The translations under genes and the position numbers were made by a program. A DNA stretch of 64,000 nt, from the NCBI GenBank assembly GCA_028280165.1, contig JANQMI010000214.1, forward strand, positions 132 to 64,131, written 5' to 3'. Each line of letters starts with the position of its first letter. Position 1 is the stretch's first letter. The DNA is from Oceanicaulis sp. GTDB lineage: Bacteria; Pseudomonadota; Alphaproteobacteria; Caulobacterales; Maricaulaceae. Below, one piece after another: positions 12,545 through 30,288 of the stretch. The notes beneath the pieces were generated by a model. The model did no database searches and was not told the DNA's origin. It saw only the letters and a program-made list of their open reading frames with translations.

Positions 12545-12582
12545 GCTCTTTGACATCACGAGCCTCTCTTCCGCGCCGTTTC

Positions 12583-12867: not shown

Positions 12868-12882
12868 GTGAACTGTGTTCAC
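12868..12882. promoter_or_regulatory. Operator-like palindrome GTGAAC-N3-GTTCAC (site 1)
   Basis: gtgaac tgt gttcac, ending 20 bp before the ATG at 12903, just upstream of the RBS. Confidence 0.65.
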
Positions 12883-12902
12883 AAAATCAGGGGAGGATCG
12901 CC

Positions 12903-14687
12903 ATGGCTGACTATGATCTAAAGATCACCGGCGGCGTCATTTATTCAGGCGAGGGCGATGCGCCGGTCGCCGGCGATATCGGGATCAAGGCTGGCCGCAT
13001 CGTGGCGGTGGGCGAGGCGTCCGGCGATGCCACCGAAACGATTGACGCCAGTGGCTGCATCGTGACGCCGGGCTTCCTTGATGCTCACACCCATTATGAC
13101 GGCCAGGCCACCTGGGACGACCGGCTAGAACCCTCCATCAAACACGGTGTGACGACGGCGGTGATGGGCAATTGCGGGGTGGGTTTTGCGCCCGTACGGC
13201 CCAGTGATCATGAGCGCCTGATCAAGTTGATGGAAGGCGTGGAGGACATCCCTGGCACTGCGCTGGCTGAAGGTCTGACTTGGGAGTGGGAAAGCTTTCC
13301 CGACTATATGGACGCGTTGGAGCGTACCCCGCGCACCATGGATATCGCGGCCATGGTGGGCCACGATCCGTTACGCGTCTTCGTGATGGATGAAAGGGCG
13401 AGTTTTGACGCCCAGGCCACCGACGACGAAATTGCCAGGATGCGCGAGCTGGTCAATGAAGCGCTCGACGCCGGGGCGATCGGCTTTGCGACCGGACGCT
13501 CTGACCTGCATCGCACTGCCGATGGCGAATGGACTCCGGCCTCAGAAGCCACGGCCAAGGAGCTCGCCGGCATTGCCGAAGCCTTTAAGGGGCGCAGCCA
13601 TGGCGTGATCCAGGCGGTCAGCGATTTCGATCTGGAACGCGATGCGGAGAAATTCCCGGCCGAGTGGGCGGTGATCGAAGACTATGTGAAGGCGGCTGGC
13701 GGGCGGCCCTTCTCCATCTCGGTCATGCAGCGCGATTTCGCGCCCGACCAGTGGAAAAAAATCCTGACCGGTCTGGAAAAGCTCGATGCGGAGGGCTTCA
13801 CCGTGCGCGCGCAGGTTGCCCCGCGAGCGATTGGCGTTTTTCTGGGGCTGCAATGCACCTTCCACCCATTCATGGGGTATCCGGCCTATAAGGAAATCGC
13901 GCATCTGCCGCTCGATGAGCGTGTGGCGCTGATGAAGACGCCGGAGTTCAAAGCCAAAACGCTGGCTCAGACATCTGACAAGCTTGCGGGGCCGGGCAGC
14001 TCGATCCCACCGATTGCCGACATGCTGATCGAGGCCATGGAGTTTGCCGCTGAAAAGCTCTTCACCCTGTCCGAAAACCCTGATTACGAGCAGCCGCCGG
14101 AAAGCTCCATTGCCGCCAAGGCCCGCGCGCGGGGCGTGTCCGTGTGGGAACAGCTCTATGACACGGTCATCGACCGCGAAGGGCGGGAGCTCATCTACCT
14201 GCCGATCTATAACTATACCGAGCTAAGCTATGACAATGTCAAAGCCATGATGGACCATCCGCTGGCCATGATGGGTTTGAGCGATGGCGGAGCCCATGTG
14301 GGCACGGTGTGTGACGCCAGCTTCCCAACCTATCTGATGAGCTATTGGACCCGCGACCGCACCCGCGGCGACAAGATCTCCACCCAACGGGCGGTCCAGA
14401 TGCTAACCGCCGATATCGCTGATTATCTGGGCCTATCCGACCGGGCGCGCATCCGGCCGGGCTTGAAGGCCGATCTCAACGTCATTGATATGAACAAGCT
14501 GCGCCTGCACGCCCCGCGCCTGGTCCAGGACCTGCCTGCGGGCGGCCAGCGCTTGCTGCAAGACGCCGAAGGCTATCGCGCCACGATCGTGGCTGGCGAA
14601 GTTGTGGTGCGTGATGATGAAGTGACGGAGGCGAGGCCCGGACGGCTGGTGCGGGCCGGGCAGGAGAGGGCGGTGGCGGCGGAGTGA
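12903..14687 (+). CDS. N-acyl-D-amino-acid deacylase-like amidohydrolase
   Basis: TPGFLDAHTHYD, GVTTAVMGNCGVG, GLSDGGAH, PGLKADLNVID; RBS gggagg. The 5' extension in the ORF track is repeat sequence. Confidence 0.88.
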   Translation: MADYDLKITGGVIYSGEGDAPVAGDIGIKAGRIVAVGEASGDATETIDASGCIVTPGFLDAHTHYDGQATWDDRLEPSIKHGVTTAVMGNCGVGFAPVRPSDHERLIKLMEGVEDIPGTALAEGLTWEWESFPDYMDALERTPRTMDIAAMVGHDPLRVFVMDERASFDAQATDDEIARMRELVNEALDAGAIGFATGRSDLHRTADGEWTPASEATAKELAGIAEAFKGRSHGVIQAVSDFDLERDAEKFPAEWAVIEDYVKAAGGRPFSISVMQRDFAPDQWKKILTGLEKLDAEGFTVRAQVAPRAIGVFLGLQCTFHPFMGYPAYKEIAHLPLDERVALMKTPEFKAKTLAQTSDKLAGPGSSIPPIADMLIEAMEFAAEKLFTLSENPDYEQPPESSIAAKARARGVSVWEQLYDTVIDREGRELIYLPIYNYTELSYDNVKAMMDHPLAMMGLSDGGAHVGTVCDASFPTYLMSYWTRDRTRGDKISTQRAVQMLTADIADYLGLSDRARIRPGLKADLNVIDMNKLRLHAPRLVQDLPAGGQRLLQDAEGYRATIVAGEVVVRDDEVTEARPGRLVRAGQERAVAAE

Positions 14688-14694
14688 ACCCAGT

Positions 14695-14791
14695 CGCCAT
14701 CCCAAACTTGAATTGGGACCCAGTCAGCGCAGGCGCAGAGACTGGGTCCTGACTTTTCCTGATTTTCATCAGGACAGGCATCAGGATGACG
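14695..14791. repeat. REP doublet-like element between convergent genes
   Basis: cgccatcccaaacttgaattgggacccagtc...gactgggtcctg...catcaggatgacg; left arm resembles 49307-49335. Confidence 0.65.
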
Positions 14792-14854
14792 ATGGTGTGT
14801 GTTACCAATCCTCATCTCTTTGCCGGCTAAGACCGGAGATGAGAAATTGCCCCC

Positions 14855-15628
14855 CTAGCGCACATAACTCGCCCCGTTCACGTCAAACGTCGCGCCGGTC
14901 GCGCTGGGCGCGCCGCCGTCCAACAGGAAGGCGCAGAGCCGGCCCAATTCCTCGGGCGTCGCCATGTCGCCATAGGGCACTTCGGCGAGTGCTTTGGCGC
15001 GCTCTTTAGGGTCTTGCGGGGCCATTTCGGTATCAATCCAGCCCGGCGAGATGGCGTAGGCCAAAAGGCCTCGGCCCGAATAGGCGCGCGCGAATGTTTT
15101 GATCATGGCGATCATGCCGGCTTTTGAGGCCGCATAGGCGGGGTGCTCGAAATCGTCGCCGCGATGGGCCGCGCGCGAAGCGATGGCGATCAACGTGCCG
15201 CCATGCGCCTGGCCATCGCTGTCGCCGTCGACCCAATCGCGCAGGGCACAGCGGGCCAGGTCGGCTGCGCTTTGCAGATTCACCTGCAGGGTCCGCGTCC
15301 AGTTATCCCGCCAGGCTTCGGCGTCATCATGGACGCTGGCCCCTTCGAAAATGCCGTGATTGAGCACCAAGCCATCGAATCCGCCTCCGGCGGCATCGAT
15401 GGCGAAAGCCCAAGCCTCTTCGGCTTTGCCTGGAATGGCGAAATCAGCCTCGACCAGACCCACGACTTGGCGACGATTTTCCCAGGCAAAGGCTTCAAGG
15501 GCTTCGGTCCGCTTAGAAAACCCCATCACCACATCGGCCCCCGCGTTGAGCAGAGTCTGGGTGATGCCTTTGCCAGCGCCACGCGACGCGCCGGTGACGA
15601 AGATGGTTTGGTCGGCGAGGGCGGTCAT
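14855..15628 (-). CDS. SDR family oxidoreductase
   Basis: VTGASRGAGKGI, LNHG, YAASK, ISPGWIDT; start re-chosen at MTALADQ. Confidence 0.88.
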   Translation of the reverse strand: MTALADQTIFVTGASRGAGKGITQTLLNAGADVVMGFSKRTEALEAFAWENRRQVVGLVEADFAIPGKAEEAWAFAIDAAGGGFDGLVLNHGIFEGASVHDDAEAWRDNWTRTLQVNLQSAADLARCALRDWVDGDSDGQAHGGTLIAIASRAAHRGDDFEHPAYAASKAGMIAMIKTFARAYSGRGLLAYAISPGWIDTEMAPQDPKERAKALAEVPYGDMATPEELGRLCAFLLDGGAPSATGATFDVNGASYVR

Positions 15629-15700
15629 GTTTGGGGTCCTATAAAGGGGCCGTGGTGGCTGGAACATACCATCCGTCCCCATCGAGGGGAGGGACGGGCG

Positions 15701-18022
15701 TTAGTTCGCTGGGGTTAGCACCAACACCCGCGATCCTTCGGGCGCATCCGAGACACCCCAATCATCGCGGATCTCGAAATACTCGCCTCTGGCCCAGCGC
15801 TCGGTCAGGTTACCATGGTGGCGGGAAAGCGGATGCCCGCTTTGTCCTGGCGCATGCATGTAGAGCGAGTTGTTCAGGTCGGACAGGTCGTAAATCGCGC
15901 GCATCGAAGCGGCGTGGAACACGTCGTAGCTTCCCGATCGATAGCTGAAATGGGCGACATTCACCGTCGAGCCATCCCCCGGGATGCCCACTCGATTTTC
16001 AAACATGTCGCCAATAAAGGGTAGATCGCCGAAGGGATGATCGAAGTCGCCTTGATGAACGTCGCCCCAGCGCCAATCGTCGATATTGGCCCCGAAGGCC
16101 CCAGCGGTTTCAGCCATGGCCGCGTCCAGCGCCAGCCCTGCGGTCAACGCACAGGTTTCCATCTCGTCGGTGCGCACATCATCGCACCATGCCGTGGCCT
16201 CGCCCATCAGCACCTCTTCCAAAAAGGCCCTGCGAGGCTGGTTGAAGCTGCGGGCGGCTTCCGGGCCCAGCTCATCATTCCAGATTGAGGCCGACAAGAC
16301 GCGCAACCAGGCGGCCAGGACCAACGCCTCAGGGCCATCGGCGTCCATGGCTCCGTCCCAGCGCTCGAGGCGAGCGAGCGCCTCCACGCCCAGCTGGCTC
16401 TCCGGCTCAGCGGCAAACAGGGCTGGACGTAGGCGCGCGACTTGCTCGCTCACCACATCCATCTGCAGTGCGGCGAAGCTATCGAGCGAGTGCAGCGCCT
16501 GCGCCTCAAGCTGAGCCTCAATCCGCGGCGCGCGATAGACGCCGTAGCTGCCGGGCAGGGGATAGGGGTAGGCTTCGCCCGCCACCAGATTATTGCCCGA
16601 GGCAATTATTCCGCCGGCGGGATTGACCACGCGCGGCAAGGCCTCGAATGGCACAAAGCCAGTCCAGTCACCCGTCGCTTCATCGCGGATCGGCAACAGG
16701 CCTGCGGTCGTGTAGCCAATCGTGCCGTCCACATGGGCGAAATGCATATTCTGCATGGGCACAGTGTAACCGCGCGCAGCGTCAACAAAGGCGTCCCAGC
16801 TATCAGCCATCATTAGCTCGAAGGTGGCGTCCGCGCCGCGATTTCCAGGTTGATTGAGTGTGGAGCGCTGAATCACGGCCAGGTCTGGATGAAAGGGCGA
16901 CAGGTCGAACCAGTCTGTAGACAGGATCGGGCCCTCGACGGTTTCCTTCACTATGACCTCAACCGGATTGGCCATCCCCGCTACGTTGATCTCCTCAACC
17001 CGTTCGGTGATCTCCAGCGTGGCTGGATCACGCTCGACCAGATCGATGACATCAAAGCCGGTATTGGTGAACCCCCAGGCGATGGAGGCATTGCGGCCGA
17101 GGATAACAAAGGGGGCACCAGGTGCGGTCACGCCGATCACCGGACCGCTTTCGAGATTGAGGCGGGCATAATACCAGATCGAGGGTGTCGACAGGCCCAG
17201 ATGCGGGTCATTGGCCAAAAGCGGTGCTCCGGTTTCAGAGCGATCCGCGGACACCACCCAGGCGTTGGACCCAGGCAGATTGTCAGGCTGGGCGAGGGCT
17301 GGCGGCGGAGCGAGACTTTCAGTCTGAATGTCGCCAAAGCCAGCGCGGACATCCTCATCTTTTAGGGTGGTTGGGCCCCAGTCCGGATAGCCGGCCAGAA
17401 ATTGATCCAGCTGGGTTTCGTTCAGGATGTCCCGCAGACGCGCGCGCTCGATATCTGCGCCATCACCGGCGGCTAAATCGTCGGCAAAGCTGATCATCAC
17501 CGCGGCGGAATCGGTGATCGTCCAGTCTGCGGGAGCCTTGCGCAGTATCGCGTATTCAGGTGCGACACCACCTTCAGCCAGGCGCGCATTGACGCCCGCC
17601 ACATAGGCCTGCACGGCCGCGCGTGTCGGCCCCGACATGGTGTCCTGCAGGCGCTCGGACAGCTGGGCATAGCCCAGCGTGCGGGTGCGCGCATCGACGC
17701 GCAGATAGTCGGCTCCAAACAGCTCGGACAAGCGCCCGCGCACATAGCGGCGAATGAGATCCATCTGAAAGAAGCGTTCCGAGGCATGGGTGTAGCCCAG
17801 CGCGTGGAAGACTGCCGCATCGTTTTCGCCGAAGATATGCGCGACGCCGTTATCGTCGCGAACGATGTGTGCGGTGCCAGGCGCGGCCTCCAGGATCACC
17901 TCGCCGGACTCCTGCGGTTTCGACGCGTGAAAACGCTCCACAAGCCAACCCGCAGTCGCCGCAACACCGAGCACCAACACCGCTAGGACTGCCAGCCCGG
18001 CGCGCACCACCCAAGTCATCAT
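15701..18022 (-). CDS. Penicillin acylase family (Ntn-hydrolase) protein
   Basis: N-terminal TM helix; RDDNGVAHI, GYTHASERFFQMD, beta-chain start GSNAWVV, LLANDPHL, PGQSGHP. Confidence 0.92.
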   Translation of the reverse strand: MMTWVVRAGLAVLAVLVLGVAATAGWLVERFHASKPQESGEVILEAAPGTAHIVRDDNGVAHIFGENDAAVFHALGYTHASERFFQMDLIRRYVRGRLSELFGADYLRVDARTRTLGYAQLSERLQDTMSGPTRAAVQAYVAGVNARLAEGGVAPEYAILRKAPADWTITDSAAVMISFADDLAAGDGADIERARLRDILNETQLDQFLAGYPDWGPTTLKDEDVRAGFGDIQTESLAPPPALAQPDNLPGSNAWVVSADRSETGAPLLANDPHLGLSTPSIWYYARLNLESGPVIGVTAPGAPFVILGRNASIAWGFTNTGFDVIDLVERDPATLEITERVEEINVAGMANPVEVIVKETVEGPILSTDWFDLSPFHPDLAVIQRSTLNQPGNRGADATFELMMADSWDAFVDAARGYTVPMQNMHFAHVDGTIGYTTAGLLPIRDEATGDWTGFVPFEALPRVVNPAGGIIASGNNLVAGEAYPYPLPGSYGVYRAPRIEAQLEAQALHSLDSFAALQMDVVSEQVARLRPALFAAEPESQLGVEALARLERWDGAMDADGPEALVLAAWLRVLSASIWNDELGPEAARSFNQPRRAFLEEVLMGEATAWCDDVRTDEMETCALTAGLALDAAMAETAGAFGANIDDWRWGDVHQGDFDHPFGDLPFIGDMFENRVGIPGDGSTVNVAHFSYRSGSYDVFHAASMRAIYDLSDLNNSLYMHAPGQSGHPLSRHHGNLTERWARGEYFEIRDDWGVSDAPEGSRVLVLTPAN

Positions 18023-18042
18023 GTCAGCCCCCTAAAGCCGGT

Positions 18043-19476
18043 TCAGCCGCCCTGCAGCTTTTTGAAGAATTCAAACATCTTGCCATATGGCGGCTGGATG
18101 AGCCGGCTGGGGTGCCAGACCGGTGCCTCGAACACGGCGCGCTCATGGGTGAAGGTCAAAAAGCCGTACTCGCCATGATACGCGCCCTGGCCGGAATGAC
18201 CAACGCCGCCGAAGGGCAGGTCTTCGACAGACAGATGCAGCATCGGCACATTGACCGCTGCACCGCCCGACAGGGTTTTGGCCAGGAAGCTGCGCGCCGT
18301 CGTTGGCGACTTTGAATGAATGTAAAGCGCCAGCGGGCGTTCGCCCTGATTGATGTGTTTGGCGGCCTGGGTCAGACCATCGTGGCCGAGCACGGGCAGC
18401 ACAGGGCCGAATATCTCCTCCCGCATCAGCTGAAGGTCAGGCGACGGATTGATCACCACGGTGGGCGGGAAGAGGCGCGTATTGCCGGCTCTTGTGGCAT
18501 CGAAGTCCGCCTGCAGCACGGTGGCCCCGGAGTTGCGGGCTTCTTCGACCATTTCGCCCAGACGGGTGTGATGGCGCTCAGAGACAATGGCCGTGTAGTC
18601 GTCATTCTCTGCAACGTTCGGCCACATGCGATTGGCTTCGCGCATAATGGCCTCGCCAAAGCTGGCTTCAGAGCCGCGCGGGACCATGGCGTAGTCCGGC
18701 GCGACACAGGTCTGGCCGGCATTGAGGAATTTGCCCCAGGCGATGGTTTTCGCCGCTTCATCAAGATTGAAGTCCGGGGCCACCACGGTGGGCGACTTGC
18801 CGCCCAGCTCCAACGTCACCGGCGTCAGGTTCTCCGCTGCAGCCTTGGCGACGATCCGGCCCACATGGGTGGAGCCGGTGTAAAAGAGGTGATCGAAAGG
18901 CAGCGAAGAGAAGGCCGCCGCGACGTCAGGGCCGCCTTCGATAACGGCGACATGATCCTCGCTGAACAGGCCGCTCAGAGTCTCGAGCAATAGCTCCCCG
19001 GTCCGCGGGGTGAACTCCGAGGGTTTGATCATCACGCGGCAACCCGCCCCCAGCGCAGCCACCAGCGGGGCCAGGGCCAGCTGCATGGGATAGTTCCACG
19101 GCGCGATGATGCCAACGACCCCTTTCGGCTCGCGGCGCACATAGGCCTTACCCGGCACCAGCGTCATGGGCACCGGCTTGCGTTTGGTCGTGGCCCATTG
19201 GGTCAGGTGTTGGCGGGTGTGCTTGGCCGTGGCGATGGTGAAGCCGGTTTCGGCGACGGCGGTTTCGGAGTGGCTGCGCCGCGAGAAGTCGGCGTCGATG
19301 GCCTTGGCGAAGTCCTCCGCCCGGGCTTTGACCATGTCTTCGATTTTCTTCAGATCGGCCTTGCGCTGATCGATCGGGCGATGGCGTTCAGCTTCAAACG
19401 CGTCTTTCTGGTCAGAGAAGACGCGATTGAGGCGATCGATATCAGAGCTCGGGGCTTCGGCCAGTTCAGCAGTCAT
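18043..19476 (-). CDS. Class 3 aldehyde dehydrogenase (coniferyl-aldehyde dehydrogenase-like)
   Basis: IAPWNYP, FYTGST, LELGGKSP, NAGQTCVAPDY, EEIFGP, PFGGVGHSG. Confidence 0.92.
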   Translation of the reverse strand: MTAELAEAPSSDIDRLNRVFSDQKDAFEAERHRPIDQRKADLKKIEDMVKARAEDFAKAIDADFSRRSHSETAVAETGFTIATAKHTRQHLTQWATTKRKPVPMTLVPGKAYVRREPKGVVGIIAPWNYPMQLALAPLVAALGAGCRVMIKPSEFTPRTGELLLETLSGLFSEDHVAVIEGGPDVAAAFSSLPFDHLFYTGSTHVGRIVAKAAAENLTPVTLELGGKSPTVVAPDFNLDEAAKTIAWGKFLNAGQTCVAPDYAMVPRGSEASFGEAIMREANRMWPNVAENDDYTAIVSERHHTRLGEMVEEARNSGATVLQADFDATRAGNTRLFPPTVVINPSPDLQLMREEIFGPVLPVLGHDGLTQAAKHINQGERPLALYIHSKSPTTARSFLAKTLSGGAAVNVPMLHLSVEDLPFGGVGHSGQGAYHGEYGFLTFTHERAVFEAPVWHPSRLIQPPYGKMFEFFKKLQGG

Positions 19477-19490
19477 GGGTCAGCTCCTTT

Positions 19491-21089
19491 TCAGGCTTCC
19501 GCCAGGATCATATCAGCTGCGCGCGTGGCAATCATGATGGTCGGCGCATTGGTGTTACCGCCCACCACAGTGGGCATCACAGAGGCATCGACAACCCGCA
19601 GATTGGATACGCCGCGCACTTTACAGGTGGGATCAACGACAGCCATGTCGCCCCTTCCCATCGCGCAGGTGGATGTCGGGTGGTAGAGCGTTTCGGCGCG
19701 CGCGCGCATGTCGGCTTCCAACGAAGCGCGGTCGCCGTTGACATCGGTTGGCAGGTCCAACTCCGAAAACTCGCCATCGAACGCGTCGGACAACAGGATA
19801 TCGCGCGCAGTTTCCAGGCAATCGGTCATCACTGCCACGTCTTCATCATGGCTGAGATAATTCGGATTGATCACCACGTGGTCGTTCGGATCGCCGCTTT
19901 GCAGCGTCAGGCGGCCGCGGCTCTTCGGGTAGAGATGGCAGGCATGAAGGCTCATGCCATGGCCGGTCAGCGTTTCGCGCCCATGGGGGCTGGCCAGCGC
20001 CGGAATGAAGACCAGCTGGATGTCGGGCAGATCGCCTGCCCGGCTCGATTTGATAAAGCCGCAGCCCTGAACCGGATTGACAGTGAAGTTGCCGGTGCCG
20101 GTGGTGGCCCATTGCAGAACGTCGCGCGCGGTGGCGGGGAATTTGCGGACCGAATATCCGATCGACGTGGGCTTCTTCGTGCGTGCCCGCGCCATGATGT
20201 CCAAATGGTCCTGCAGGTTTTCACCCACGCCCGGCAGGTCTTGTTCCACCGAAATCCCGTGTTCGCGTAAATGATCTGCGGGGCCGATGCCTGAAAGCAT
20301 CAGAGTGTGTGGCGAGTTGAGAGCGCCGCCCGAAAGGATGACCTCTTTGGTGGCGATGACTTCTTTGCGTTCGCCTGCAATCTCTATCTCAACGCCCTGG
20401 GCTTCACCGTTTTCAATCAAGACGCGGCGCACCATGGCTTCAGTCACCACCGTTAAGTTCGGTCGCTGCATGGCAGGCTTTAAGAAGGCGTCAGCCGCCG
20501 AGCAGCGCTTGCCGCCCTTCTGAGTGACTTGATACACGCCGAAGCCTTCCTGGCGCTCGCCATTATGATCCGGACATTCGGGGATCTGTTTCTTGCGGCA
20601 AGCCTCGTAATACATCTCTGTAAGAGCATTGAGGGGCTCGATGGATTTCACATTGAGCGGGCCGCCCTTGCCGTGCCAGGGCGTGCCGTGGTTTTCGTTG
20701 TTTTCGACCCGGATGAAGGCTTCGAGCGCGGCCTGACCCGACCAACCGTCGCAGCCATGATCTTCCCGCCAGCTGTCATAATTTTCCAGCGCGCCGCGCA
20801 TGTAGTGCATGGCGTTGATGGAGGAAGATCCACCCAGCGTCTTACCGCGTGGCCAGTAGAGCTTGCGACCATCGAGATTTTTCTGTGGTTCGGTCCAATA
20901 GTCCCAGTTGATGGAGCTATCCGTGATCGTGAACTGCAGCAGCATGGGAGTTTGGATATTGGTCTTGTTGTCCTTGCCGCCGGCCTCCAGCACACAGACC
21001 GTCGATTTGCCATCCGCCGATAAGCGGTCGGCCAGCACGCAACCTGCAGAGCCTGCCCCAACGATCACATAGTCAAAGACATCGCTCAT
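19491..21089 (-). CDS. GMC family oxidoreductase (AlkJ/choline dehydrogenase-like)
   Basis: [51 protein letters not shown]. Confidence 0.92.
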
Positions 21090-22369
21090 GGATTCGCGTC
21101 CTCAGAAACCGCCTCGTCCTCTCTCCCGTCCACCGCAGCGAGAGGGGCCGGGCGCTCCGCCAGAGGGCTGACATGCTCGGAGACCGCGCGGAAGAAGGCA
21201 TGCGCCTCTGCAGTGCGGGCAAACCAGGTCGGGTCGCCCGCATTCTGGGCGATCACCACGCCGCGATGGCGGTCCACCCAGACATATTGGCCAAACACGC
21301 CAGCCATGTAGAACTCGCCATCATAGCCTTCCGGTACCCAGAAATGCAGGCCATAGCCGCGCATCGGATAGCGGGTCGCGCCTGGCTCCTGGAAGTCGGC
21401 CTGCGGCGTTGTGGCCTCGATACTCCAGCCTTCGGGCAGCATGCGCAGCCCATTCCATACGCCATCCAGGCGATAGAATTCACCAAAGCGCGCATAGTCT
21501 TCGCTGGTCGCTTGCAGACAGCAATAACCCACCCCAATGCCGTCCTCGCCGACCTTGTTTTGTAGCCAGCTGGCGTCGCTGGTCATGCCCAGCGGCGTCC
21601 AGATCTGTTCGGTGACGACATCGGCGAGACGCCCGCCATAAACCGCGCGCGCAACGGCGGCGAGCACGTGGGTGTTGGGGCTGGTATAGTGTAGGTCCTG
21701 ACCCGGTTCGCGATCGCGCTCGATCTCACCGACCATGGTGTCGATATTCCGACCCAGGATGAAGGCGTTGAAGAAGAGCGGGCGGATATCGCTAGGGCGG
21801 TCCGGGTCATAGCCTTCGTTGAAGTCCACGCCCGCCGACATCATCAGAATGTGGCGCAGGCTGGTGCGGCCGTAGTCCGTGCCGGCGAATTGCGGCGCGT
21901 AGGTCTCCGCTGTGTCGTCCAGGCTGTTGATCAGCCCGTCTTCAACTGCTTTGGCGATCAGGCTGGCAACAAAGGATTTAGCCACCGACCAGCTGGTAAA
22001 CAACGTGTCTTCGTCGGCCCCCTGAAAGAAGGCCTGGTTAAGCACCACACCATCACGCATCACGGTCAGGCCCGTGATGTTGGCGTCCACGATATAGTCA
22101 GCGACCGATAGTCTCTCACCGTCGACTTCAAAGTTTTCAGGCAGGTTTGCCTGCCCGGTTGGCAGCGGGGCGGGGGCTCCGGCGGTCACTACCGAATAGG
22201 GCAGGATTTCATCCATGCGCTGGAAGGTCGCCGGGTATTCCTCCGGCACGTCTAGCGCGGTGATTTTCGCCGGCGAGTAATCCGACCAAGGCCGATAATA
22301 CCAGCCGCCAAAGGCCAGGGCCGCGACCACAATAAGGGCCACCAGCGCGAATCCGATGCGCTTCATCAC
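21086..22369 (-). CDS. Serine hydrolase, beta-lactamase-related (NylB/esterase-like), membrane-anchored
   Basis: N-terminal TM helix; SWSVAKS (SxxK), HYTSPNT, AGVFGQ; 4-bp overlap with the GMC start. Confidence 0.85.
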
Positions 22370-22429
22370 AATGTCCTCCCCTTGAGGGTCCCGCTATCAT
22401 GGCGCAGCGGTGACTCTCGGCGAGTAGAA

Positions 22430-22444
22430 GTGAACACTGTTCAG
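22430..22444. promoter_or_regulatory. Operator-like palindrome GTGAAC-N3-GTTCAG (site 2, one mismatch)
   Basis: gtgaac act gttcag, about 60 bp upstream of the 22369 start of the five-gene minus-strand run. Confidence 0.6.
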
Positions 22445-22476
22445 TGCGTGTTGGCCAGAGGGGGTGTCCCGCAGGA

Positions 22477-23634
22477 TCAGTCAGCCGGCGTCAGCCGCAC
22501 CAGCCTACCGTCTGCCCCATCGGTTAGCACCCACAGGGCTCCATCGGGACCGGTGGCCACCTGGCGGATACGCGGTTGGCCGTCCAGAATGATGCGGTTC
22601 TCCGCGATCACAGTGCCGTTGGCATCCAGGTCGAGATGATGGATCGCTTGGCCAGCCAGCGCGGCGACAAACAGATCGCCGCCCCATTCGGAAAACAAAT
22701 CGCCGTCATAAACGGTCAGCCCGGCGGGGGCGATGGAGGGAGTCCAGCCCCAGATCGGGCCAGTGAAACCCTGCTCTTCGTGATCCTCGAACGGGGAAAT
22801 GCGCGCACCGTTGTAGTCGCGGCCTTCGGTGACGATGGGCCATCCATAGTTTGCACCGGGGCTGAGCTGGTTGAGCTCATCGCCGCCTGCGGGCCCATGC
22901 TCATGCTCCCAGATGATGCCACGCCGGCTATCAAAGGCAATGCCCTGCACATTGCGATGGCCGTAGGAATAAACGAAGGCTGCGGCCCCGCCTTCATCGA
23001 AGAAGGGATTGTCCGCCGGCGGTGTGCCATCGGTGGTCAGGCGCACCACCGTGCCCAGGTGATTGTCATAGCGCTGGGCTTGTTCGCGATAGGCAAAGGC
23101 GTCGCCCAGAGTCAGAAGCAGCGTACCGTCCGGCAGAAAGGTCACCCGCCCCCCATAGTGGGCGTCGGTATCGCGGTCTGGGCTGGAGCGGAAGATGGTC
23201 TCGCCCCCGACCAGCGCCTCGCCATCAAATCGCGCCTTGAACACGGCGGTATGGTTAGCCTCGGCGTCTCCGCCCGAATAGGTCAAAATAACCTCACCGG
23301 TCTCAGCGAAGTCCGGGGTGGCTTCGACTTCCAGGAGACCGCCCTGCCCAGCAAAGAAGCTCTCGGGCACGCCGGCCACCGGGCTCACCGTCAGTGCGCC
23401 GTCGCGTATGAGCCGCAGCGCTCCGTCGCGCTCGGTCACCAATATGTCACCGCCAGGAAGGAAAGCGACGTCCCAAGGATAGGATAGGCCTTCAGCAATG
23501 ACCGCCTCGCTGAAGCTGGCACTCTCGATCAAGGGCGCTTCAGAGCGATCGGTGGGGCCGCCGCAGGCCGCCAGACCGGCAGCCAGAGCGACCACTGCAG
23601 ACGAGTGAGCGAGGGCGGACAAACGCGAAGCCAT
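22477..23634 (-). CDS. PQQ-dependent sugar dehydrogenase (glucose/sorbosone DH family) lipoprotein
   Basis: Lipobox LAAC; GLSYPWDVAFLP, GQGGLL, HYGGR, YSYGHRNVQG, EHGPAGGDELN, NYGWP, PSIAPAG. Confidence 0.9.
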   Translation of the reverse strand: MASRLSALAHSSAVVALAAGLAACGGPTDRSEAPLIESASFSEAVIAEGLSYPWDVAFLPGGDILVTERDGALRLIRDGALTVSPVAGVPESFFAGQGGLLEVEATPDFAETGEVILTYSGGDAEANHTAVFKARFDGEALVGGETIFRSSPDRDTDAHYGGRVTFLPDGTLLLTLGDAFAYREQAQRYDNHLGTVVRLTTDGTPPADNPFFDEGGAAAFVYSYGHRNVQGIAFDSRRGIIWEHEHGPAGGDELNQLSPGANYGWPIVTEGRDYNGARISPFEDHEEQGFTGPIWGWTPSIAPAGLTVYDGDLFSEWGGDLFVAALAGQAIHHLDLDANGTVIAENRIILDGQPRIRQVATGPDGALWVLTDGADGRLVRLTPAD

Positions 23635-23742
23635 AGGGCTCTCCTGTCGATACTTCGATCACGCCGGGTTTGCCGACGAGCTGTGAATCGGCATCCTAGC
23701 GAGGGTGCTGTAAAACGCACCTCATTCATCGGAGGGCCGATC

Positions 23743-24192
23743 GTGAGATTTTTTACCGCCGTTCTGGGCTTTGTCCTGGCGACTGTTTTGCTAACGGTCC
23801 TTGCCGTAATTTTCCAGACCGGCTTCGTGCTGTCGATGCTGAGCGAAGTTGGCGCAGAGATCGGAATTGGCGCGGCGCTGTCCATGATCATCGATGACCT
23901 CATCGGGTTTGGCCCGCTTTATGGAGTGCTGATCGCGGTTGGCCTGGTGATTGCCTTCCCAGCCGCTGCGCTTGTGCACCGCCTCACCAAGCTGTCACGC
24001 GAATTAGTATTTGCCTGCGCCGGCGCAGCCTGTTTGCTGGTCATGCTGATCGCCATGGAACAGGCCTTTTTTGGCGTTCAGCTGGTGGCTGGAGCCCGCA
24101 CACTGCCAGGCCTGATTGGTCAGGTGCTTGCCGGCGGTCTCGGTGGGCTTGCCTATGCAATGATAACCGCTCCGCCGCGTCCCAATATCTGA
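23743..24192 (+). CDS. Small multi-pass membrane protein, divergent from the PQQ dehydrogenase
   Basis: About four hydrophobic helices; GTG start after RBS ggaggg. Confidence 0.7.
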   Translation: MRFFTAVLGFVLATVLLTVLAVIFQTGFVLSMLSEVGAEIGIGAALSMIIDDLIGFGPLYGVLIAVGLVIAFPAAALVHRLTKLSRELVFACAGAACLLVMLIAMEQAFFGVQLVAGARTLPGLIGQVLAGGLGGLAYAMITAPPRPNI

Positions 24193-24416
24193 CGCCCTAA
24201 GATGAACCTCCTTCCAGAGCTCATTCGGCCACTGGAGTTTTGGGGCTAGAGCAGAACTGGTTTCGCGCTCGCTTGGCGGGCCCATATGAGCAGGGCTGTC
24301 ATGCGAATTAACGTGCGACTACGCGCTCTAAAGTGCGGGTGCCCTGACCGATACGAACCCGGCGTGACGCGAAGGGTGATTGCAAAAAGAATTGCTGTTG
24401 CAGGGCTGTTTGTCTC

Positions 24417-24449
24417 TTGACGGGGGCGATTAGTCAGCGTGCGATACTC
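24417..24449 (+). promoter_or_regulatory. Possible sigma70 promoter of the TonB-dependent receptor
   Basis: TTGACG at 24417-24422 and gcgatactc about 18 bp downstream, similar to the Caulobacter-type -10. Confidence 0.35.
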
Positions 24450-24638
24450 ATAAGTCTATGAATGCGGCGCGGATTCGCGTCGGGTGCGGCGATGTGGCCT
24501 ATCCGCCACTATTTCACCTCGCATCAATCAGCCCGCATGACAAATAGGCCGAATGCGGCATAAGCTGTGCATTGGATCGGTAAGCAGCGGCGATAAGCTG
24601 CGCCGCGATTTAAAAATTCTCAGGGGGAGGAAACCTGA

Positions 24639-27290
24639 ATGAAGCGTTCCATTAAAGCTGTTGCTCTCGGCGCGACGGCACTCGCCGCGGGTCTTGTGAC
24701 CACCGGTGCCATGGCACAGACGCCAGACGTCATCACCGTTACCGCGCAAAAGCGTGAACAGACCCTGCAGGAAGTTCCGATCGCCGTGTCGGTGGTTCAG
24801 GCAGAGACGCTGGAAAATGCTCAGATCGTTGATGCGATTGATCTTCAGTCTGTCATTCCTGCGCTGCGCGTCAGCCAGCTCGAGCGCAGCTCGAATGCCA
24901 CCTTCATCATTCGTGGCCAAGGTAATGGCGCGAACAACCCCGGAATTGAGCCGTCAGTGGCGGTCTATATCGATGGGGTGTTCCGCAACCGCGCGGGGAC
25001 CGCGCTGTCCGACCTTATTGGAATTGAGCGCGTGGAAGTCCTGCGGGGCCCGCAGTCGACGCTGTTCGGTAAGAATGCCACCGCCGGTGTGGTCAGCATC
25101 ATCACCGCTGAGCCCGATTTTGAATTCGGCGGCACTGCTGAGGCGACTTTCGGCAACTATAATCAGACTATTCTGAAAGGTTCGGTTACGGGGCCCTTGA
25201 GCGAAAACGTCGCGTTCTCGCTGGCCGGCAGTATCAATCAGCGTGACGGTTATTATGAAAATCTCGGCCCAGCCGGTGATTTCAACAATCGTGACCGTTG
25301 GGCCATTCGCGGTCAGCTGCTGATGATCCCGAGCGATAATCTGGAACTGCGCCTGATCGCCGACTATGACGAAATCGACGAGCAATGCTGCGGTACTGAT
25401 CGTGTGATCGACGGTGCTGCCGGTCCTGTGCTGCGCGGCCTTCTGGGCGGCCAGACGTCAGCGGGCCCGGGCTTCAACTACCAGATCGCCACCGACTTCG
25501 CGAACCAGAACACGATCGAGAATTCTGGCGTGTCCTTGCAGGCCGATTGGACCCTGGGTGAGACCACAACGCTGAGCTCGATCACAGCCTACCGCAATTA
25601 TGACGACTTCATTGACTATGAGGGTGACTTCACCACGCTCGCTTTGCTTGGTGAAAACGTCCGCGGTTTGGATATCGGCACCTTTAGCCAGGAATTCCGC
25701 CTAACCGGGGACTGGAATAACCGGGCTTTCTATCTACTGGGGGCCTATTACTCCAACGAGGATATGACGGTTGAAGATGCGCGTATCTATGGCGCTGACA
25801 CCCGCGCCTATGTGGATATCCTGACCGGCGGTGCGCTCGCAGGTCTCGAGGCCGCGACCGGCTTCGCACCTGGCAGCTTCTTCGCAGACGGGGGCGGGAC
25901 CCGCTTCACCGCTGAGCAATCCGACGAGCAATACCAGATCTTCGGTCAGGTCGACTTTAACCTGTCTGACCGTTTGGTTCTGACTGCGGGTCTGGCCTAT
26001 TTTGAGACCACGAAGGAAGTGGACTTCACCAATGTGGTCCGGACCAACCCCTTCTCCGACCTGAACCTTGTGCAGGTTGGATTGGGATCCTTCCTGGCCA
26101 GTGCTGGGGTGAACCCGAATGACCCGGCTCAAGTCGGTGCGTTCGCAGCGGCTCAGCCAGGCGTTTTCGCCGCGTTCCAAAGCGCGTCGACGACCTTCAA
26201 TTCCGTCGGTCTTGCCAATGGTGGTGTTTTGGTTGGGGGAGTCGTGGTCGATCCGATCACCGGCTTGCCGCTCGCCAACCCGCTTTTGGACTTCTTCGCT
26301 TTGGGACTGCAGCCGCTCGGCGCGCTGACCCCGTTCCCGAATTCGGTAGAAGACGGCACCACGACCGACTCGGACTGGCCGTACACGATCCGGCTGGCGT
26401 TTGACGCGACCGATCGTACGAATGTCTACGCCTCCTTCTCGCGCGGCTTTAAAGCTTCGTCCTGGAACCTGACCCCGGATACGCGTCCGGCGTCATCGGA
26501 CATTGCTGCCCTGCGGGCGGCTGGCGAACTGGCGGCTGACAATGCGCTGGGCCTGCCCACCGTGGTCAACACCGCTGAAGCGCTCGGCGTGGCCGGCAAC
26601 CAGCGCTTCGCGCGTCCGGAAATCACCGAGACCTTCGAGATTGGCTTCAAGACCCGCTTTAGCTTCGGCTCGCTGGATGTGGCCTTCTTTGACCAGACCG
26701 TCACAGACTTCCAGTCCTCGGTCTTCCAGGGCGCTGGCTTTGCGGTGATCAACGCCGGTGAGCAATCCGCTCAGGGTCTCGAGTTTGACAGTGTCATCAA
26801 CCCACCACAGATCGAGGGTCTGACCCTGACTTTGTCGGGCATCTGGATGGATGCTGAATATGACGACTTCCAGGGTGCTCCGGTTGTGTCCGGCAGCGCG
26901 ATCGACCTGGCGGACGGTGTTCAGGACGGTACGGGCGATCTCAGTGGTGAATCGGTGTCCGGTATTCCGGAATTCGCCGGCTCCTTTGGGGTTCAGTACA
27001 ATCGTGAGACCTCCTTCGGTGAGCTGTTGATGCGTGCGGACTGGCAGTATGAGTCCGAAGTGCGGCTTCTGGAGAATCTGCCTGAAACGATCACGCGTGA
27101 GGTCTCGACGATCAATGCGTCGATCGGCCTGAACTTTAACAATGGCTTCGAAGCTTTGGCGTGGGCTCGTAATCTCAATGATGACGAGTACTACACCTCG
27201 GGCTTCCCAACCACGCTGCAGTCGGGGTCGTTCTCGACCTATCCGAATGCGCCGCGCACTTATGGCATTACGCTGCGCAAGGACTTCTAA
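24639..27290 (+). CDS. TonB-dependent receptor
   Basis: Signal peptide; ITVTAQKREQTLQEVPIAVS plug start, ERVEVLRGPQSTLFGKNA, C-terminal PRTYGITLRKDF. Confidence 0.95.
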   Translation: MKRSIKAVALGATALAAGLVTTGAMAQTPDVITVTAQKREQTLQEVPIAVSVVQAETLENAQIVDAIDLQSVIPALRVSQLERSSNATFIIRGQGNGANNPGIEPSVAVYIDGVFRNRAGTALSDLIGIERVEVLRGPQSTLFGKNATAGVVSIITAEPDFEFGGTAEATFGNYNQTILKGSVTGPLSENVAFSLAGSINQRDGYYENLGPAGDFNNRDRWAIRGQLLMIPSDNLELRLIADYDEIDEQCCGTDRVIDGAAGPVLRGLLGGQTSAGPGFNYQIATDFANQNTIENSGVSLQADWTLGETTTLSSITAYRNYDDFIDYEGDFTTLALLGENVRGLDIGTFSQEFRLTGDWNNRAFYLLGAYYSNEDMTVEDARIYGADTRAYVDILTGGALAGLEAATGFAPGSFFADGGGTRFTAEQSDEQYQIFGQVDFNLSDRLVLTAGLAYFETTKEVDFTNVVRTNPFSDLNLVQVGLGSFLASAGVNPNDPAQVGAFAAAQPGVFAAFQSASTTFNSVGLANGGVLVGGVVVDPITGLPLANPLLDFFALGLQPLGALTPFPNSVEDGTTTDSDWPYTIRLAFDATDRTNVYASFSRGFKASSWNLTPDTRPASSDIAALRAAGELAADNALGLPTVVNTAEALGVAGNQRFARPEITETFEIGFKTRFSFGSLDVAFFDQTVTDFQSSVFQGAGFAVINAGEQSAQGLEFDSVINPPQIEGLTLTLSGIWMDAEYDDFQGAPVVSGSAIDLADGVQDGTGDLSGESVSGIPEFAGSFGVQYNRETSFGELLMRADWQYESEVRLLENLPETITREVSTINASIGLNFNNGFEALAWARNLNDDEYYTSGFPTTLQSGSFSTYPNAPRTYGITLRKDF

Positions 27291-27333
27291 GACTGAACGT
27301 CGTCAACCTGCCCTTGGGCCGGGTTGCAAAGAG

Positions 27334-27366
27334 ACGCCACCGGGGAAACCCGGTGGCGTTTTTTTA
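27334..27366 (+). terminator. Rho-independent terminator
   Basis: acgccaccggg-gaaa-cccggtggcgt followed by a T run. Confidence 0.9.
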
Positions 27367-27535
27367 TCTCCGGTCGCTCCATCCCCCCTCTCGACCTCGA
27401 AGAATGTTGGTGCCCAATGCCCGAAAACGCTGAGCATGACATCCCCTGGGGCCCGCCTCAGCCAGGAAGGTTGAATGGGTGCGGCAACACATCCTTGCCC
27501 TTGAATTTCAAAACCAAAGCCAGTTCATTGCGGAC

Positions 27536-27982
27536 ATGAGCGAGGTCATCACCCTGATTATCGTCATTGGAGCCTCCGCGCTTGCGGTCGGGCTTTTAGT
27601 GGCGTTGAACGCTTTTATGGGCGGATGGACGCGCGCGCGCCTGAGCGATGTGACGGCGGCCGGCGAGCGGATTGGCGTGGACGTGCTGGGCTTTCGTCCC
27701 AGCCCGATGGCGACCCTTGATGCTGAGCGCCGCACCGCCCTGGTCTTTGAACAGGGCGGAGCGCGTCTCGGTTTAGCGGTCTGCCGCGGCGATAAAATCA
27801 CGGTCCGGGCGCTGCGCCCGAACGAGCTTGTCAGCGCCGATGCGGTGGGCTCAGAACTGGGGCTTAGGCTTGACGACTATACCCTGCCGCAGGTCAGCTT
27901 GCGCCTTGGCGATCCAACCCAGGCTCAGCGCTGGGTGGACGATATCAAGGCCTTTATGAGCCAAGCGGACTCGAAAGACTGA
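27536..27982 (+). CDS. Hypothetical protein with N-terminal membrane anchor
   Basis: One N-terminal TM helix, genome-typical codon usage, stop 2 bp before the desaturase start. Confidence 0.7.
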   Translation: MSEVITLIIVIGASALAVGLLVALNAFMGGWTRARLSDVTAAGERIGVDVLGFRPSPMATLDAERRTALVFEQGGARLGLAVCRGDKITVRALRPNELVSADAVGSELGLRLDDYTLPQVSLRLGDPTQAQRWVDDIKAFMSQADSKD

Positions 27983-27984
27983 CC

Positions 27985-28908
27985 ATGCCGAACCTGCCTG
28001 ATCCGATCTTTGTGGCGATCCCCGCCTTCGTGATCTTAGTCATTGCGGAGATGATCTATGCGCGCACGAGCGGTGGGGCGAGATATGAGCCGCGTGATAC
28101 CGCTGCCAGCCTCACCATGGGCTTGGGTAATACGATTTCCGGTGTGCTTCTGGGCGGCATCGCCGTGTACTGGTTCACCCTGATCGAGCCGTTCGGCCTG
28201 TTCGATATCGGTTGGGCGTGGTGGGCTTTTGCCCTCGCTTTCTTGCTTGATGACTTGGTCTATTACTGGAGCCATCGCTTTGCCCACACGGTGCGGTGGT
28301 GGTGGGCCGATCACGTGGTCCACCATTCCAGTCAGCACTACAATCTGTCCACGGCCTTGCGTCAGCCTTGGCTTAGTCCGCTGACTCTGAAATTCATTGT
28401 CTTTGGGTCCTGGCTGGTATTGCTGGGCTTTCCACCGGCCATGATCGCCTTCGTTGCGGCGCTAAATCTGGTCTACCAGTTCTGGATCCACACTGAAGCT
28501 ATTGGCAAGATGTGGGCTCCGATCGAGTGGATCATGAACACGCCGAGCCACCACCGCGTCCATCACGCCACCAACCCGCGCTATCTCGATCGCAATTATG
28601 CGGGCGTCTTCATTATCTGGGACCGCCTCTTCGGCACATTCGAAGCTGAGCGGAAGGATGAGCCTTGCCGCTATGGCATCGTGCGCAATCTGGGCACGTT
28701 TAATCCCATCAAGATTTGCCTGCATGAATGGCTCGCCATCATCAGGGATGTGCGCGGGTCAAAGTCGGTCAGCGAGGCGCTGGGCTATTGGCTTGGCCCG
28801 CCAGGATGGTCACCCGATGGCAGCCGCGACAGCTCCAAAATTCTCAAAGCCCGCTGGAAGGCTCGGCAGGAAGAGAAGAGCGACCCCACCAAGGTGGCCG
28901 CGGAGTGA
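27985..28908 (+). CDS. Sterol desaturase / fatty acid hydroxylase family protein (alkylglycerol monooxygenase-like)
   Basis: His boxes YYWSHRFAH, HVVHHSS, QFWIHT, SHHRVHH; NYAGVFIIWDRLFGTF. Confidence 0.9.
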   Translation: MPNLPDPIFVAIPAFVILVIAEMIYARTSGGARYEPRDTAASLTMGLGNTISGVLLGGIAVYWFTLIEPFGLFDIGWAWWAFALAFLLDDLVYYWSHRFAHTVRWWWADHVVHHSSQHYNLSTALRQPWLSPLTLKFIVFGSWLVLLGFPPAMIAFVAALNLVYQFWIHTEAIGKMWAPIEWIMNTPSHHRVHHATNPRYLDRNYAGVFIIWDRLFGTFEAERKDEPCRYGIVRNLGTFNPIKICLHEWLAIIRDVRGSKSVSEALGYWLGPPGWSPDGSRDSSKILKARWKARQEEKSDPTKVAAE

Positions 28909-29053
28909 CGTGAGCTGGGCGAGTGATGTCCTTCCCCGCCAGCAGGGGGAGACACCCGCGAAAATCCCTTAAAGCCCCGCTCCAGTTCGTCGCACCGCGA
29001 AGCCCTAAAGCCTGGCTTGCCAAACGGGCCTTCCTCCCACACACTCGATGAAA

Positions 29054-29068
29054 GTGAACGCTGTTCAC
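29054..29068. promoter_or_regulatory. Operator-like palindrome GTGAAC-N3-GTTCAC (site 3)
   Basis: gtgaac gct gttcac, about 98 bp upstream of the diiron oxygenase ATG. Confidence 0.65.
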
Positions 29069-29166: not shown

Positions 29167-30288
29167 ATGACGGCGCTGCGCGATCTTTATCCGATGCCGG
29201 ACATCGACAAGCACTGGCATGTGCCCAACGAATTCGAAGCCGTCTTCGACTGGCGCTTCGACGAAGGGCGGACCACGCTCATGCACTTGTACCAGAAGGG
29301 CAAGGACATGCAGTGGGATGCGCTGAACCGTATCGATTGGCAGCTGGATCTCGACCCCGAAGATCCCATGCAGATGCCCGATGAGGCCGTCCCGATTTTT
29401 GGGTCCTCGGTTTGGGACAAGATGAACCGACAAGAAAAGGCCGAAATGCGTCGCCATGGTCAGGCCTGGAATATCTCCCAATTCCTGCAGGGCGAGCAGG
29501 CGGCTCTTTTGGCCGCTTCAAAAATCGTTCAATCCGTCCCCGATCTCGATGCGAAATTCTACGCCGCCACGCAGGTGATGGATGAAGCCCGCCATGTGGA
29601 GGCCTATAAAAAGCTGCTGGGCAAGTTTGGCGTCGCCTATCCGATGACCGATCCGCTCCAGGAGCTGGTCAATGATGCGCTGTCCGACAGCCGCTGGGAT
29701 GTCACCTACCTGGCCATGCAGGTGGTCATCGAAGGCCTGGCGCTCGCCGCCTTCGGCACCATTCGTGATCTGGCGCAGAACCCGCTGGCCAAGCAGGTCA
29801 ACGCCTATGTCATGGAAGACGAGGCGCGCCACGTGGCCTTCGGGCGGTTATCGCTGCGCGACTATTATCCGGAGTTGACCCAGAAAGAGCGTGATGAGCG
29901 TGAAGAGTTTCTGGTGGAGGCCTGCTATTTGATGCGCGATCGCATGACCCAGTCCAGCGTGGTGTATGAGCAGCTCGGCCTGCCGGTTAAAGAGTGCGTA
30001 GACTTCACCGAGCAGTCAGAGATCGTGAAGCTGTACCGCACCATGCTATTCCAACGCATTGTCCCGATCGTGAAGGATATCGGGCTTTGGGGTGATAAGA
30101 TCCAGAAATGCTATGAGGATATGGGCGTGCTGCACTATGCCGAACTCGATCCTCAGCTCTTGATGGATGAAGATGAACGCATCGCCAAGGAGATCGAAGC
30201 CGCTGCGGAAGGTATCGATCCGACCAAGGCGCGCCGCGATTATATCCATGCCGTGGCCAAGCAGGGCGCGGCCGGTCACGCCGAATAG
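29167..30288 (+). CDS. Ferritin-like diiron-carboxylate protein (AurF/CmlI-like fold)
   Basis: Paired E...DEARH motifs: QGEQAA / MDEARH and IEGLAL / EDEARH. Confidence 0.82.
   Translation: MTALRDLYPMPDIDKHWHVPNEFEAVFDWRFDEGRTTLMHLYQKGKDMQWDALNRIDWQLDLDPEDPMQMPDEAVPIFGSSVWDKMNRQEKAEMRRHGQAWNISQFLQGEQAALLAASKIVQSVPDLDAKFYAATQVMDEARHVEAYKKLLGKFGVAYPMTDPLQELVNDALSDSRWDVTYLAMQVVIEGLALAAFGTIRDLAQNPLAKQVNAYVMEDEARHVAFGRLSLRDYYPELTQKERDEREEFLVEACYLMRDRMTQSSVVYEQLGLPVKECVDFTEQSEIVKLYRTMLFQRIVPIVKDIGLWGDKIQKCYEDMGVLHYAELDPQLLMDEDERIAKEIEAAAEGIDPTKARRDYIHAVAKQGAAGHAE

Follow-up and report, generated by a model that had tools for sequence, protein, structure and literature searches.

Known operators and the Maricaulaceae dyad

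The closest described counterparts of the DNA element studied here are the operators of the regulators BioQ, DesT/FabR, and YodB. The element is a 15-bp palindrome (dyad), GTGAAC-N3-GTTCAC, which lies upstream of three separate catabolic units in a 64-kb stretch of DNA from the alphaproteobacterium Oceanicaulis sp., a member of the family Maricaulaceae (assembly GCA_028280165.1, contig JANQMI010000214.1, positions 132 to 64,131). The whole of that stretch is called the window below. BioQ, a TetR-family regulator of Actinobacteria, has the predicted operator TGAAC-N3-GTTCA upstream of bio genes (PMC3398298), and its mention was the only match in a literature search for our motif. The two words have identical core half-sites and the same 3-nucleotide (nt) spacer, both are promoter palindromes, and in both cases one regulator would serve several dispersed operons. 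However, BioQ belongs to a different phylum and controls a regulon of biotin synthesis and uptake, and the resemblance is one of the DNA word only, an analogy and not a mark of membership. DesT, which responds to acyl-CoAs, binds the promoters of desCB and fabAB (PMC10634369). Together with FabR it represents gammaproteobacterial control of unsaturated fatty acid genes, and it shares with the present system promoter dyad operators and a lipid-related theme. The fabAB and desCB targets are unlike the hydrolases, oxidoreductases, and soluble di-iron proteins found here. The Maricaulaceae targets differ from both of these systems in that no TetR gene was found near them. YodB, of the MarR-DUF24/HxlR family, is a dimeric repressor that binds TACT-N7-AGTA across two consecutive major grooves (PMC8063818). 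YodB, QsrR, and HxlR resemble the present case in their 15-bp dyads and in typical targets that include oxidoreductases, and a Maricaulis member of the family is encoded beside operator copies. Their half-sites differ from ours, and the known members are Firmicutes sensors of stress and electrophiles with small regulons. The QsrR operator, for example, reads GTATA-N5-TATAC.

Other known operators were considered and set aside. LexA boxes contain the same GAAC and GTTC tetranucleotides as our dyad, arranged as GAAC-N4-GTTC in Gram-positive bacteria and as the direct repeat GTTC-N7-GTTC in Alphaproteobacteria. An SOS box was rejected: the spacer here is N3, the orientation differs from that of the alphaproteobacterial repeat, and the targets are not DNA repair genes. 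A CRP/FNR site was rejected as well, the dyad having GTGA-N7-TCAC where CRP/FNR sites have an N6 spacer, and the operators of BetI, Irr (the iron control element [ICE] box), RirA, and LexA all have the wrong spacing.

Phylogenetic footprinting, described below, strongly supports the view that the dyad is an evolutionarily conserved cis-regulatory site, specific to the Maricaulaceae and common to separate transcription units. It likewise strongly supports a predicted shared and previously undescribed regulon, the regulator of which would be encoded outside the window. We consider it likely that the dyad is the operator of a homodimeric, pathway-specific factor, most likely a ligand-released repressor whose gene lies beyond the window. 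In kind this would be a standard, local regulon, small and pathway-specific, with a palindromic operator, and it challenges no current concept. The motif does provide a comparative-genomics handle on uncharacterized enzymes of marine stalked Alphaproteobacteria, predicted to be coregulated across several Maricaulaceae genera, and the enzyme set includes an AurF-like di-iron oxygenase family without a known function, whose Alphaproteobacteria proteins share about 55% identity with those of Streptomyces and Binatia. The operator could be used as bait for the regulator and, through the ligand of the regulator, for the substrate of the pathway.

Three copies of the dyad in the window

Perfect copies of GTGAAC-N3-GTTCAC stand at 12868-12882 (copy 1; GTGAACTGTGTTCAC, GTGAAC-TGT-GTTCAC) and at 29054-29068 (copy 3; GTGAACGCTGTTCAC, GTGAAC-GCT-GTTCAC). 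Copy 2, at 22430-22444, has one mismatch (GTGAACACTGTTCAG) and reads CTGAACAGTGTTCAC on the minus strand, which is the direction of the operon behind it. These positions agree with an earlier note on this DNA, made by a model from the letters and their open reading frames (ORFs), and all three copies are, as it stated, noncoding and upstream of start codons. Copy 1 ends 20 nt from the ATG of an Amidohydro_3 (D-aminoacylase-like) gene; the note had this distance right but the start codon is at 12903, not 12904. Copy 2 is 63 nt from the first gene of a hydrolase operon if translation starts at ATG 22366, and 60 nt if it starts at GTG 22369. Copy 3 ends 98 nt from the ATG (29167) of a gene for an AurF-like di-iron oxygenase.

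Three such copies had been called unlikely by chance, and this was borne out. None of 100 dinucleotide-preserving shuffles of the window contained a perfect match, and even the shorter word GAAC-N3-GTTC occurs only three times in the 64 kb, each time in noncoding DNA and each time as one of the three copies. Matches with two mismatches, at 31395, 31817, and 43912, lie in coding DNA, and their number is at the chance level. The 40-nt flanks of the three copies are 21 to 34% identical to one another, a value expected of random sequence, and the copies therefore do not belong to a dispersed repeat such as a repetitive extragenic palindrome (REP) or a miniature inverted-repeat transposable element (MITE). 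An Rfam search of the window gave no match. The window also holds a degenerate relic copy at 27293-27307 (CTGAACGTCGTCAAC, three mismatches), 2 nt 3' of the stop codon of a TonB-dependent receptor gene, and it is followed by what looks to the eye like a terminator hairpin, at about 27338-27367.

Conservation in related genomes

A search with the AurF-like protein, taking one genome per species, yielded 80 loci. Twelve were from the same family (L001-L012, representing Maricaulis spp., Hyphobacterium, Robiginitomaculum, and Maricaulaceae metagenome-assembled genomes), and the other 68 were from taxa that include Parvularculaceae, Kordiimonas, Binatia, and Streptomyces. Allowing at most one mismatch, the dyad was present 47 to 99 nt 5' of the AurF-like orthologue in 12 of the 12 family loci and in 0 of the 68 loci of other taxa. 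Closer relatives were obtained through hydrolase homologues (L175, L176, and L177). In L175 (84% identity) the hydrolase operon is preceded by CTGAACAGTGTTCAC and the Amidohydro_3 start, at a distance of 25 nt, by TTGAACGCAGTTCAC. In L176 (78% identity) the dyad stands in front of three units, namely, the AurF-like gene, orf151/FA_hydroxylase, and the hydrolase operon, and in Glycocaulis alkaliphilus (L177) it stands in front of the first and the last of these. Identical or near-identical equivalents of copy 2 precede the orthologous operon in L175, L176, L177, L003-L006, L008, and L012. In L002 the penicillin-amidase-family gene has a separate operator copy, and in L083 a dyad lies 35 nt 5' of an operon consisting of a bile-acid/Na+ symporter-family (SBF) transporter gene and the Amidohydro_3 gene. 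Clade promoters with the dyad thus comprise 15 of the 15 AurF-like promoters examined, 10 hydrolase-operon promoters, and 3 promoters of Amidohydro_3 or SBF genes. The footprint was kept upstream of orthologues at all three window sites, an outcome on which the proposal in the earlier note depended. Relatives with a conserved dyad also include Oceanicaulis-like metagenome-assembled genomes.

In Maricaulis the genes form a supercluster, with (short-chain dehydrogenase [SDR]/acylase)-aldehyde dehydrogenase (ALDH)-GMC-hydrolase on one strand and the TonB-dependent receptor, orf147, FA_hydroxylase, and AurF-like genes on the other. Additional copies of the dyad stand there before the hydrolase operon and beside orf147/FA_hydroxylase. 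A metagenome scan with the Amidohydro_3 protein, combined with look-ups of neighboring genes, yielded extra loci and one extra target, a TIGR03805 beta-helix lipoprotein gene followed by a TIGR03806 SO2930-family diheme cytochrome c gene. The three units that had been assigned to the regulon from the window alone are retained, and in relatives the predicted content is wider, adding orf147/FA_hydroxylase and the beta-helix/cytochrome c pair.

The enrichment of the dyad is confined to this clade. In 25 clade sequences, amounting to 0.514 Mb, there were 37 copies (16 perfect and 21 with one mismatch) against about 1.1 expected, an enrichment of about 30-fold, and in 147 loci from other taxa, amounting to 2.16 Mb, there were 4 copies (none perfect and 4 with one mismatch) against about 4.8 expected. 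A looser pattern, NTRAAC-N3-GTTYAN, was scanned in the window, L001-L012, L082, and L083 and in about 2.2 Mb of other loci, and it matched the clade sequences plus one other locus only. All clade copies are noncoding, as judged site by site against called genes or mapped ORFs and not by a uniform gene call; one copy has its first base in common with a stop codon. Along with the random identity of the flanks, this answered two objections raised in advance, namely, that the motif might be common in coding DNA or might belong to a repeat family.

Form of the site and promoter geometry

Forty-two copies, oriented by the downstream gene, gave the consensus GTGAAC-R-N-Y-GTTCAM, which holds about 23 bits. 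Position 7 is a purine in 40 of these copies and position 9 is a pyrimidine in 41, and the element is thereby a 7-1-7 dyad. Anchored on the dyad, the orthologous promoters fell into two conserved layouts, one for the AurF-like gene and one for the hydrolase operon. The putative promoter of the AurF-like gene lies at 29017-29045 on the plus strand (TTGCCA at 29017-29022, 17 nt, CACACT at 29040-29045), and the operator starts 8 nt farther on. The layout cccTTGCC(A), 17/18 nt, CAC(G/A)(T/C)T, 6 to 8 nt, dyad was found in 10 orthologous AurF-like promoters. Hydrolase-operon promoters have a GCTAnnnT-type box, which we take to resemble the Caulobacter -10 consensus, and its end is 5 nt 5' of the dyad. 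At the window Amidohydro_3 promoter, the -10 position, 17 nt past a cccTTGAGC box, is part of the dyad itself. A dyad lying on or just after a -10-like box or a predicted start suggests the geometry of a repressor.

Two other accounts of the site were weighed against that of a repressor operator. As RNA, the dyad could form a stem of 6 bp closed by a 3-nt loop, and its copies are placed in or near 5' leaders. However, among 23 distinct copies the 1/15 pair is broken in 11 and the 3/13 pair in 4, and no pair is altered on both sides by compensatory changes. Because the sequence is kept and the pairing is not, the element is predicted to be a protein-binding DNA site rather than an RNA stem. With the empty Rfam search, the unrelated flanks, and the restriction of the enrichment to one clade, an RNA hairpin, or else a chance occurrence or dispersed repeat, is highly improbable. 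A protein-binding site might instead serve an activator, and in several promoters the dyad is indeed 60 to 100 nt from the start codon. In other promoters, however, it ends 20 to 24 nt before the ATG, as at the window Amidohydro_3 gene and at the Maricaulis hydrolase operon (21 to 24 nt, with the ribosome-binding site in between), and this leaves no space for the geometry of an upstream activator. The conserved -35/-10-like boxes also stand 5' of the dyad and not 3' of it, and an activator site seems to us quite unlikely.

The preferred reading, then, is that of a repressor operator. The factor would bind the dyad at three window promoters inside an 18-kb supercluster, thereby governing the expression of Amidohydro_3, of the operon that runs from the hydrolase through GMC, ALDH, and acylase to SDR, and of the AurF-like di-iron oxygenase. 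Among related Maricaulaceae, orf147/FA_hydroxylase and the beta-helix/diheme cytochrome c pair would come under this operator as well. With the dyad beginning 5 to 8 nt past the -10-like box, or overlapping it, the bound protein would occlude RNA polymerase or block promoter escape.

Several observations weigh against this reading. An E. coli-type consensus scan found no promoter, so the promoter boxes are predicted from their conservation alone. Matches to the organism were confined to coral metagenomes and no RNA run contains it, and so repression and coexpression are what we infer. No small regulator gene, of TetR or any other type, was seen in the window in searches with Pfam, NCBIfam, a helix-turn-helix (HTH) consensus panel, and an HxlR hidden Markov model, which is in line with the statement in the earlier note that the regulator is not encoded there. 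A look-up meant to extend the window yielded no more than a 2.4-kb Logan contig. Membership of the regulon differs by genome, with the Amidohydro_3 copy limited to the window lineage, L175, and L083. In L003, L005, L006, L008, and L012, moreover, a copy begins with the final base of the stop codon of the TonB receptor (for example, at 7498-7512 of L005); a GC hairpin resembling a terminator and then orf147/FA_hydroxylase come after it, and the relic of the window occupies the corresponding place. This is a nonclassical position for an operator.

Candidate regulators

The earlier note had assigned the dyad to an acyl-CoA-sensing TetR-family repressor related to DesT/FabR. Members of that family do use 15-bp dyads, the predicted BioQ operator, alone among documented TetR operators, has the same core and spacing (PMC3398298), and the enzyme set fits lipid-like substrates. 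TetR genes usually adjoin a target, however, and neither the window nor 24 related clade loci (about 450 kb around the targets; consensus scan and Pfam-annotated lists) showed a PF00440 gene, whether next to a target or preceded by the dyad. One weak TetR consensus match was in a nonclade locus, L022. DesT/FabR operators have, according to the earlier note itself, a longer spacer, and the targets include no fab or des genes. The assignment did not hold up in these searches, and a TetR repressor of this kind is possible but doubtful. We think no better of the chances of the HxlR/YodB-family winged-helix regulator of the Maricaulis supercluster, the gene for which would have to lie elsewhere in the genome of the window organism. 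No regulator gene other than HxlR (PF01638) recurs inside the supercluster, and the HxlR gene is always divergent from SBF-Amidohydro_3. An operator copy directly follows its stop codon, ahead of the next gene, in L083, L162-164, L168, and L170/171, and it is often the beta-helix gene that comes after this copy; L083 has a second copy in the divergent HxlR promoter region. The family binds 15-bp dyads such as that of YodB (PMC8063818), GTTGC-N5-GCAAC is present in the promoter of a paralogue, and a 15-bp 7-1-7 dyad agrees with the dyad length of the family, with its two consecutive major grooves. On the other side, the gene is absent from the window, and a link between it and the targets, seen in Maricaulis-type loci, is lacking in L082, L175-L177, and L001-L012. 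In L169, L172, and L174, which have no beta-helix gene, there is no dyad near HxlR, an indication that the dyad goes with the former gene rather than with the latter, and in L082 a dyad precedes the beta-helix gene without an adjoining HxlR gene. Autoregulation would call for a copy between SBF and HxlR, but one was found only in L083 and none in L162, L165, L168, L169, L170, L172, or L174; in the SBF-HxlR intergenic regions another box recurs, GGTCGC/GCGACC, possibly the operator of HxlR itself. A search for HxlR in the metagenome of the window organism gave only a 41-nt match to some HxlR-family contig, and two further Logan HxlR contigs derive from other samples. The link of HxlR to the dyad is weak, and we allot HxlR and TetR similar minor shares of the probability, with other families taking the rest. 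Less probable again is the fuller proposal of a Maricaulaceae-wide regulon for uptake and oxidation of lipid compounds via a fatty aldehyde, arranged around the AurF-like family, with the Maricaulis HxlR/YodB-type protein as an aldehyde- or electrophile-sensing regulator. If it were true, HxlR/YodB-type control of several dispersed catabolic operons would be an unusual role for the family, and one of the operators would stand between a stop codon and a terminator.

The HxlR orthologues are 76 to 92% identical among the Maricaulis-type loci and 64 to 70% identical in two more divergent ones. The protein has an N-terminal cysteine (MSCAIAQ) and a C-terminal extension of about 45 amino acids (L083 8298-8762, L162 10001-10471, and equivalents). 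The GGTCGC/GCGACC box was seen at L083 8762-9038, at L162 9721-10001, and in L165, L170, L172, and L174, in some loci as an inverted repeat 15 to 24 nt apart. A ttGGTCGCnCCTGGGGAGG form of it lies just before the ribosome-binding site of the AurF-like gene in L003-L008 and L012, and not in the window leader. The box may be a second regulatory motif, perhaps the site of HxlR.

Other regulator genes at these loci were rejected as candidates. An XRE (ScfR/RamB-like) gene for a protein of about 480 amino acids lies 3' of the Maricaulis AurF-like gene, with no dyad nearby, and is probably unrelated. For an HTH_3 gene in L001 there was no homologue at any other locus. The Parvularculaceae have a Fur/Mur gene 5' of the AurF-like gene, but theirs is a different clade and a different motif, and Crp-type, LysR, and AraC genes were found in single loci only and were not recurrent. 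The only DNA-binding regulator found in the window is an OmpR-family response regulator (54324-55097). Its gene has no dyad near it and lies near a FliI-type flagellar ATPase gene (50905-52287).

Target genes and predicted pathway

The target of copy 1 is the Amidohydro_3 gene (12903-14687, plus strand; PF07969, E value of 1.8e-48). The SBF transporter gene (11004-11987, plus strand) is in an operon with it in relatives. A second Amidohydro_3 paralogue, of 568 amino acids, is encoded at 56747-58453 on the minus strand (E value of 2.5e-90) and is without an operator copy. The operon behind copy 2 is on the minus strand and begins with a Beta-lactamase-family serine hydrolase (21086-22366; PF00144), recognized also by synteny, which is a membrane-anchored enzyme of the esterase or amidase type. 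It continues with a choline-dehydrogenase-like GMC oxidoreductase that scores below the BetA cutoff (19491-21089), a class-3-type aldehyde dehydrogenase with an MdlD-type best NCBIfam match (18043-19476), and a penicillin-amidase-family N-acyl amidase of the Ntn type (15701-18022; PF01804, E value of 5e-175), and it ends with a short-chain dehydrogenase (14855-15682). In the window and in L175-L177, and not in Maricaulis, a pyrroloquinoline quinone (PQQ)-type glucose/sorbosone dehydrogenase gene and a gene for a small membrane protein (22477-24192) lie between the hydrolase operon and the receptor gene. Owing to this insertion, copy 2 is no longer in a divergent promoter region common with the TonB-dependent receptor. 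The receptor gene (24639-27290, plus strand) is a member of the syntenic cluster and has no operator copy 5' of it in the window. Downstream on the plus strand are orf147, encoding a membrane-anchored protein of no family, and a gene of the FA_hydroxylase superfamily of membrane di-iron enzymes (27539-28908 together). This unit has an operator in relatives and only the relic copy in the window.

The target of copy 3, the AurF-like ferritin-type di-iron oxygenase gene (29167-30288, plus strand; PF11583), is the most conserved member of the regulon. The E..EXXH..E..EXXH ligands are invariant. In an AlphaFold2 (AF2) model with a predicted local distance difference test (pLDDT) score of 79.6, the nearest folds were cyanobacterial aldehyde-deformylating oxygenase (ADO), R2lox, and AurF/CmlI, with a target-normalized TM-score of about 0.7 for ADO and sequence identities of 11 to 20%. 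ADO and R2lox bind a fatty aldehyde or fatty acid. The family has no characterized member and no close solved structure, the best PDB sequence match having an E value of 0.002. Across the window protein and loci L027-L080, identity is 53 to 61% to proteins of Binatia, Rokubacteria, Streptomyces, Acidimicrobiia, and Chloroflexi.

An acyl or lipid-like substrate had been proposed for these genes, and the enzymes are compatible with one: ALDH, GMC, the esterase and acylase hydrolases, FA_hydroxylase, and the ADO/R2lox-like fold. A reasonable reading of the gene content is that an acyl conjugate would be hydrolyzed and the product then oxidized through alcohol, aldehyde, and acid. The fatty-aldehyde theme of the regulon is suggestive. 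We infer a small-molecule inducer and a lipid-derived substrate, such as a fatty alcohol or aldehyde or an ester-, ether-, or amide-linked acyl compound.

In Parvularculaceae, Marinicaulis, and Hyphococcus (L013-L026), the AurF-like gene is directly 3' of a Fur/Mur-type gene. About 60 to 110 nt upstream of the gene (locus positions of about 9890 to 9940), its promoter there has a dyad of another kind, GTAAACT-N4-AGT(G/T)TAC, which follows a TTGAC box. The half-sites of this sister-clade dyad are similar to those of the Maricaulaceae dyad, whereas its spacer is three bases longer. It is one of two odd details of the system, the other being the operator copy that stands 3' of the receptor stop codon and 5' of the terminator-like hairpin.

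Other features of the window

The SBF transporter and Amidohydro_3 genes, adjacent and in one operon in relatives, are separated in the window by a repeat-containing insertion at 12030-12557. Its ends are a 150-nt direct repeat (12030-12179 and 12408-12557; 87% identical) that flanks a 74-nt inverted repeat (12174-12247 and 12320-12393). An ORF of 156 amino acids at 12071-12541 is an artifact of this element. In L175 the two genes are likewise about 1 kb apart. Elsewhere in the window, an ORF of 133 amino acids on the minus strand (43060-43461) encodes a Kazal-type serine protease inhibitor domain (PF00050/PF07648), a domain that is uncommon in bacteria.

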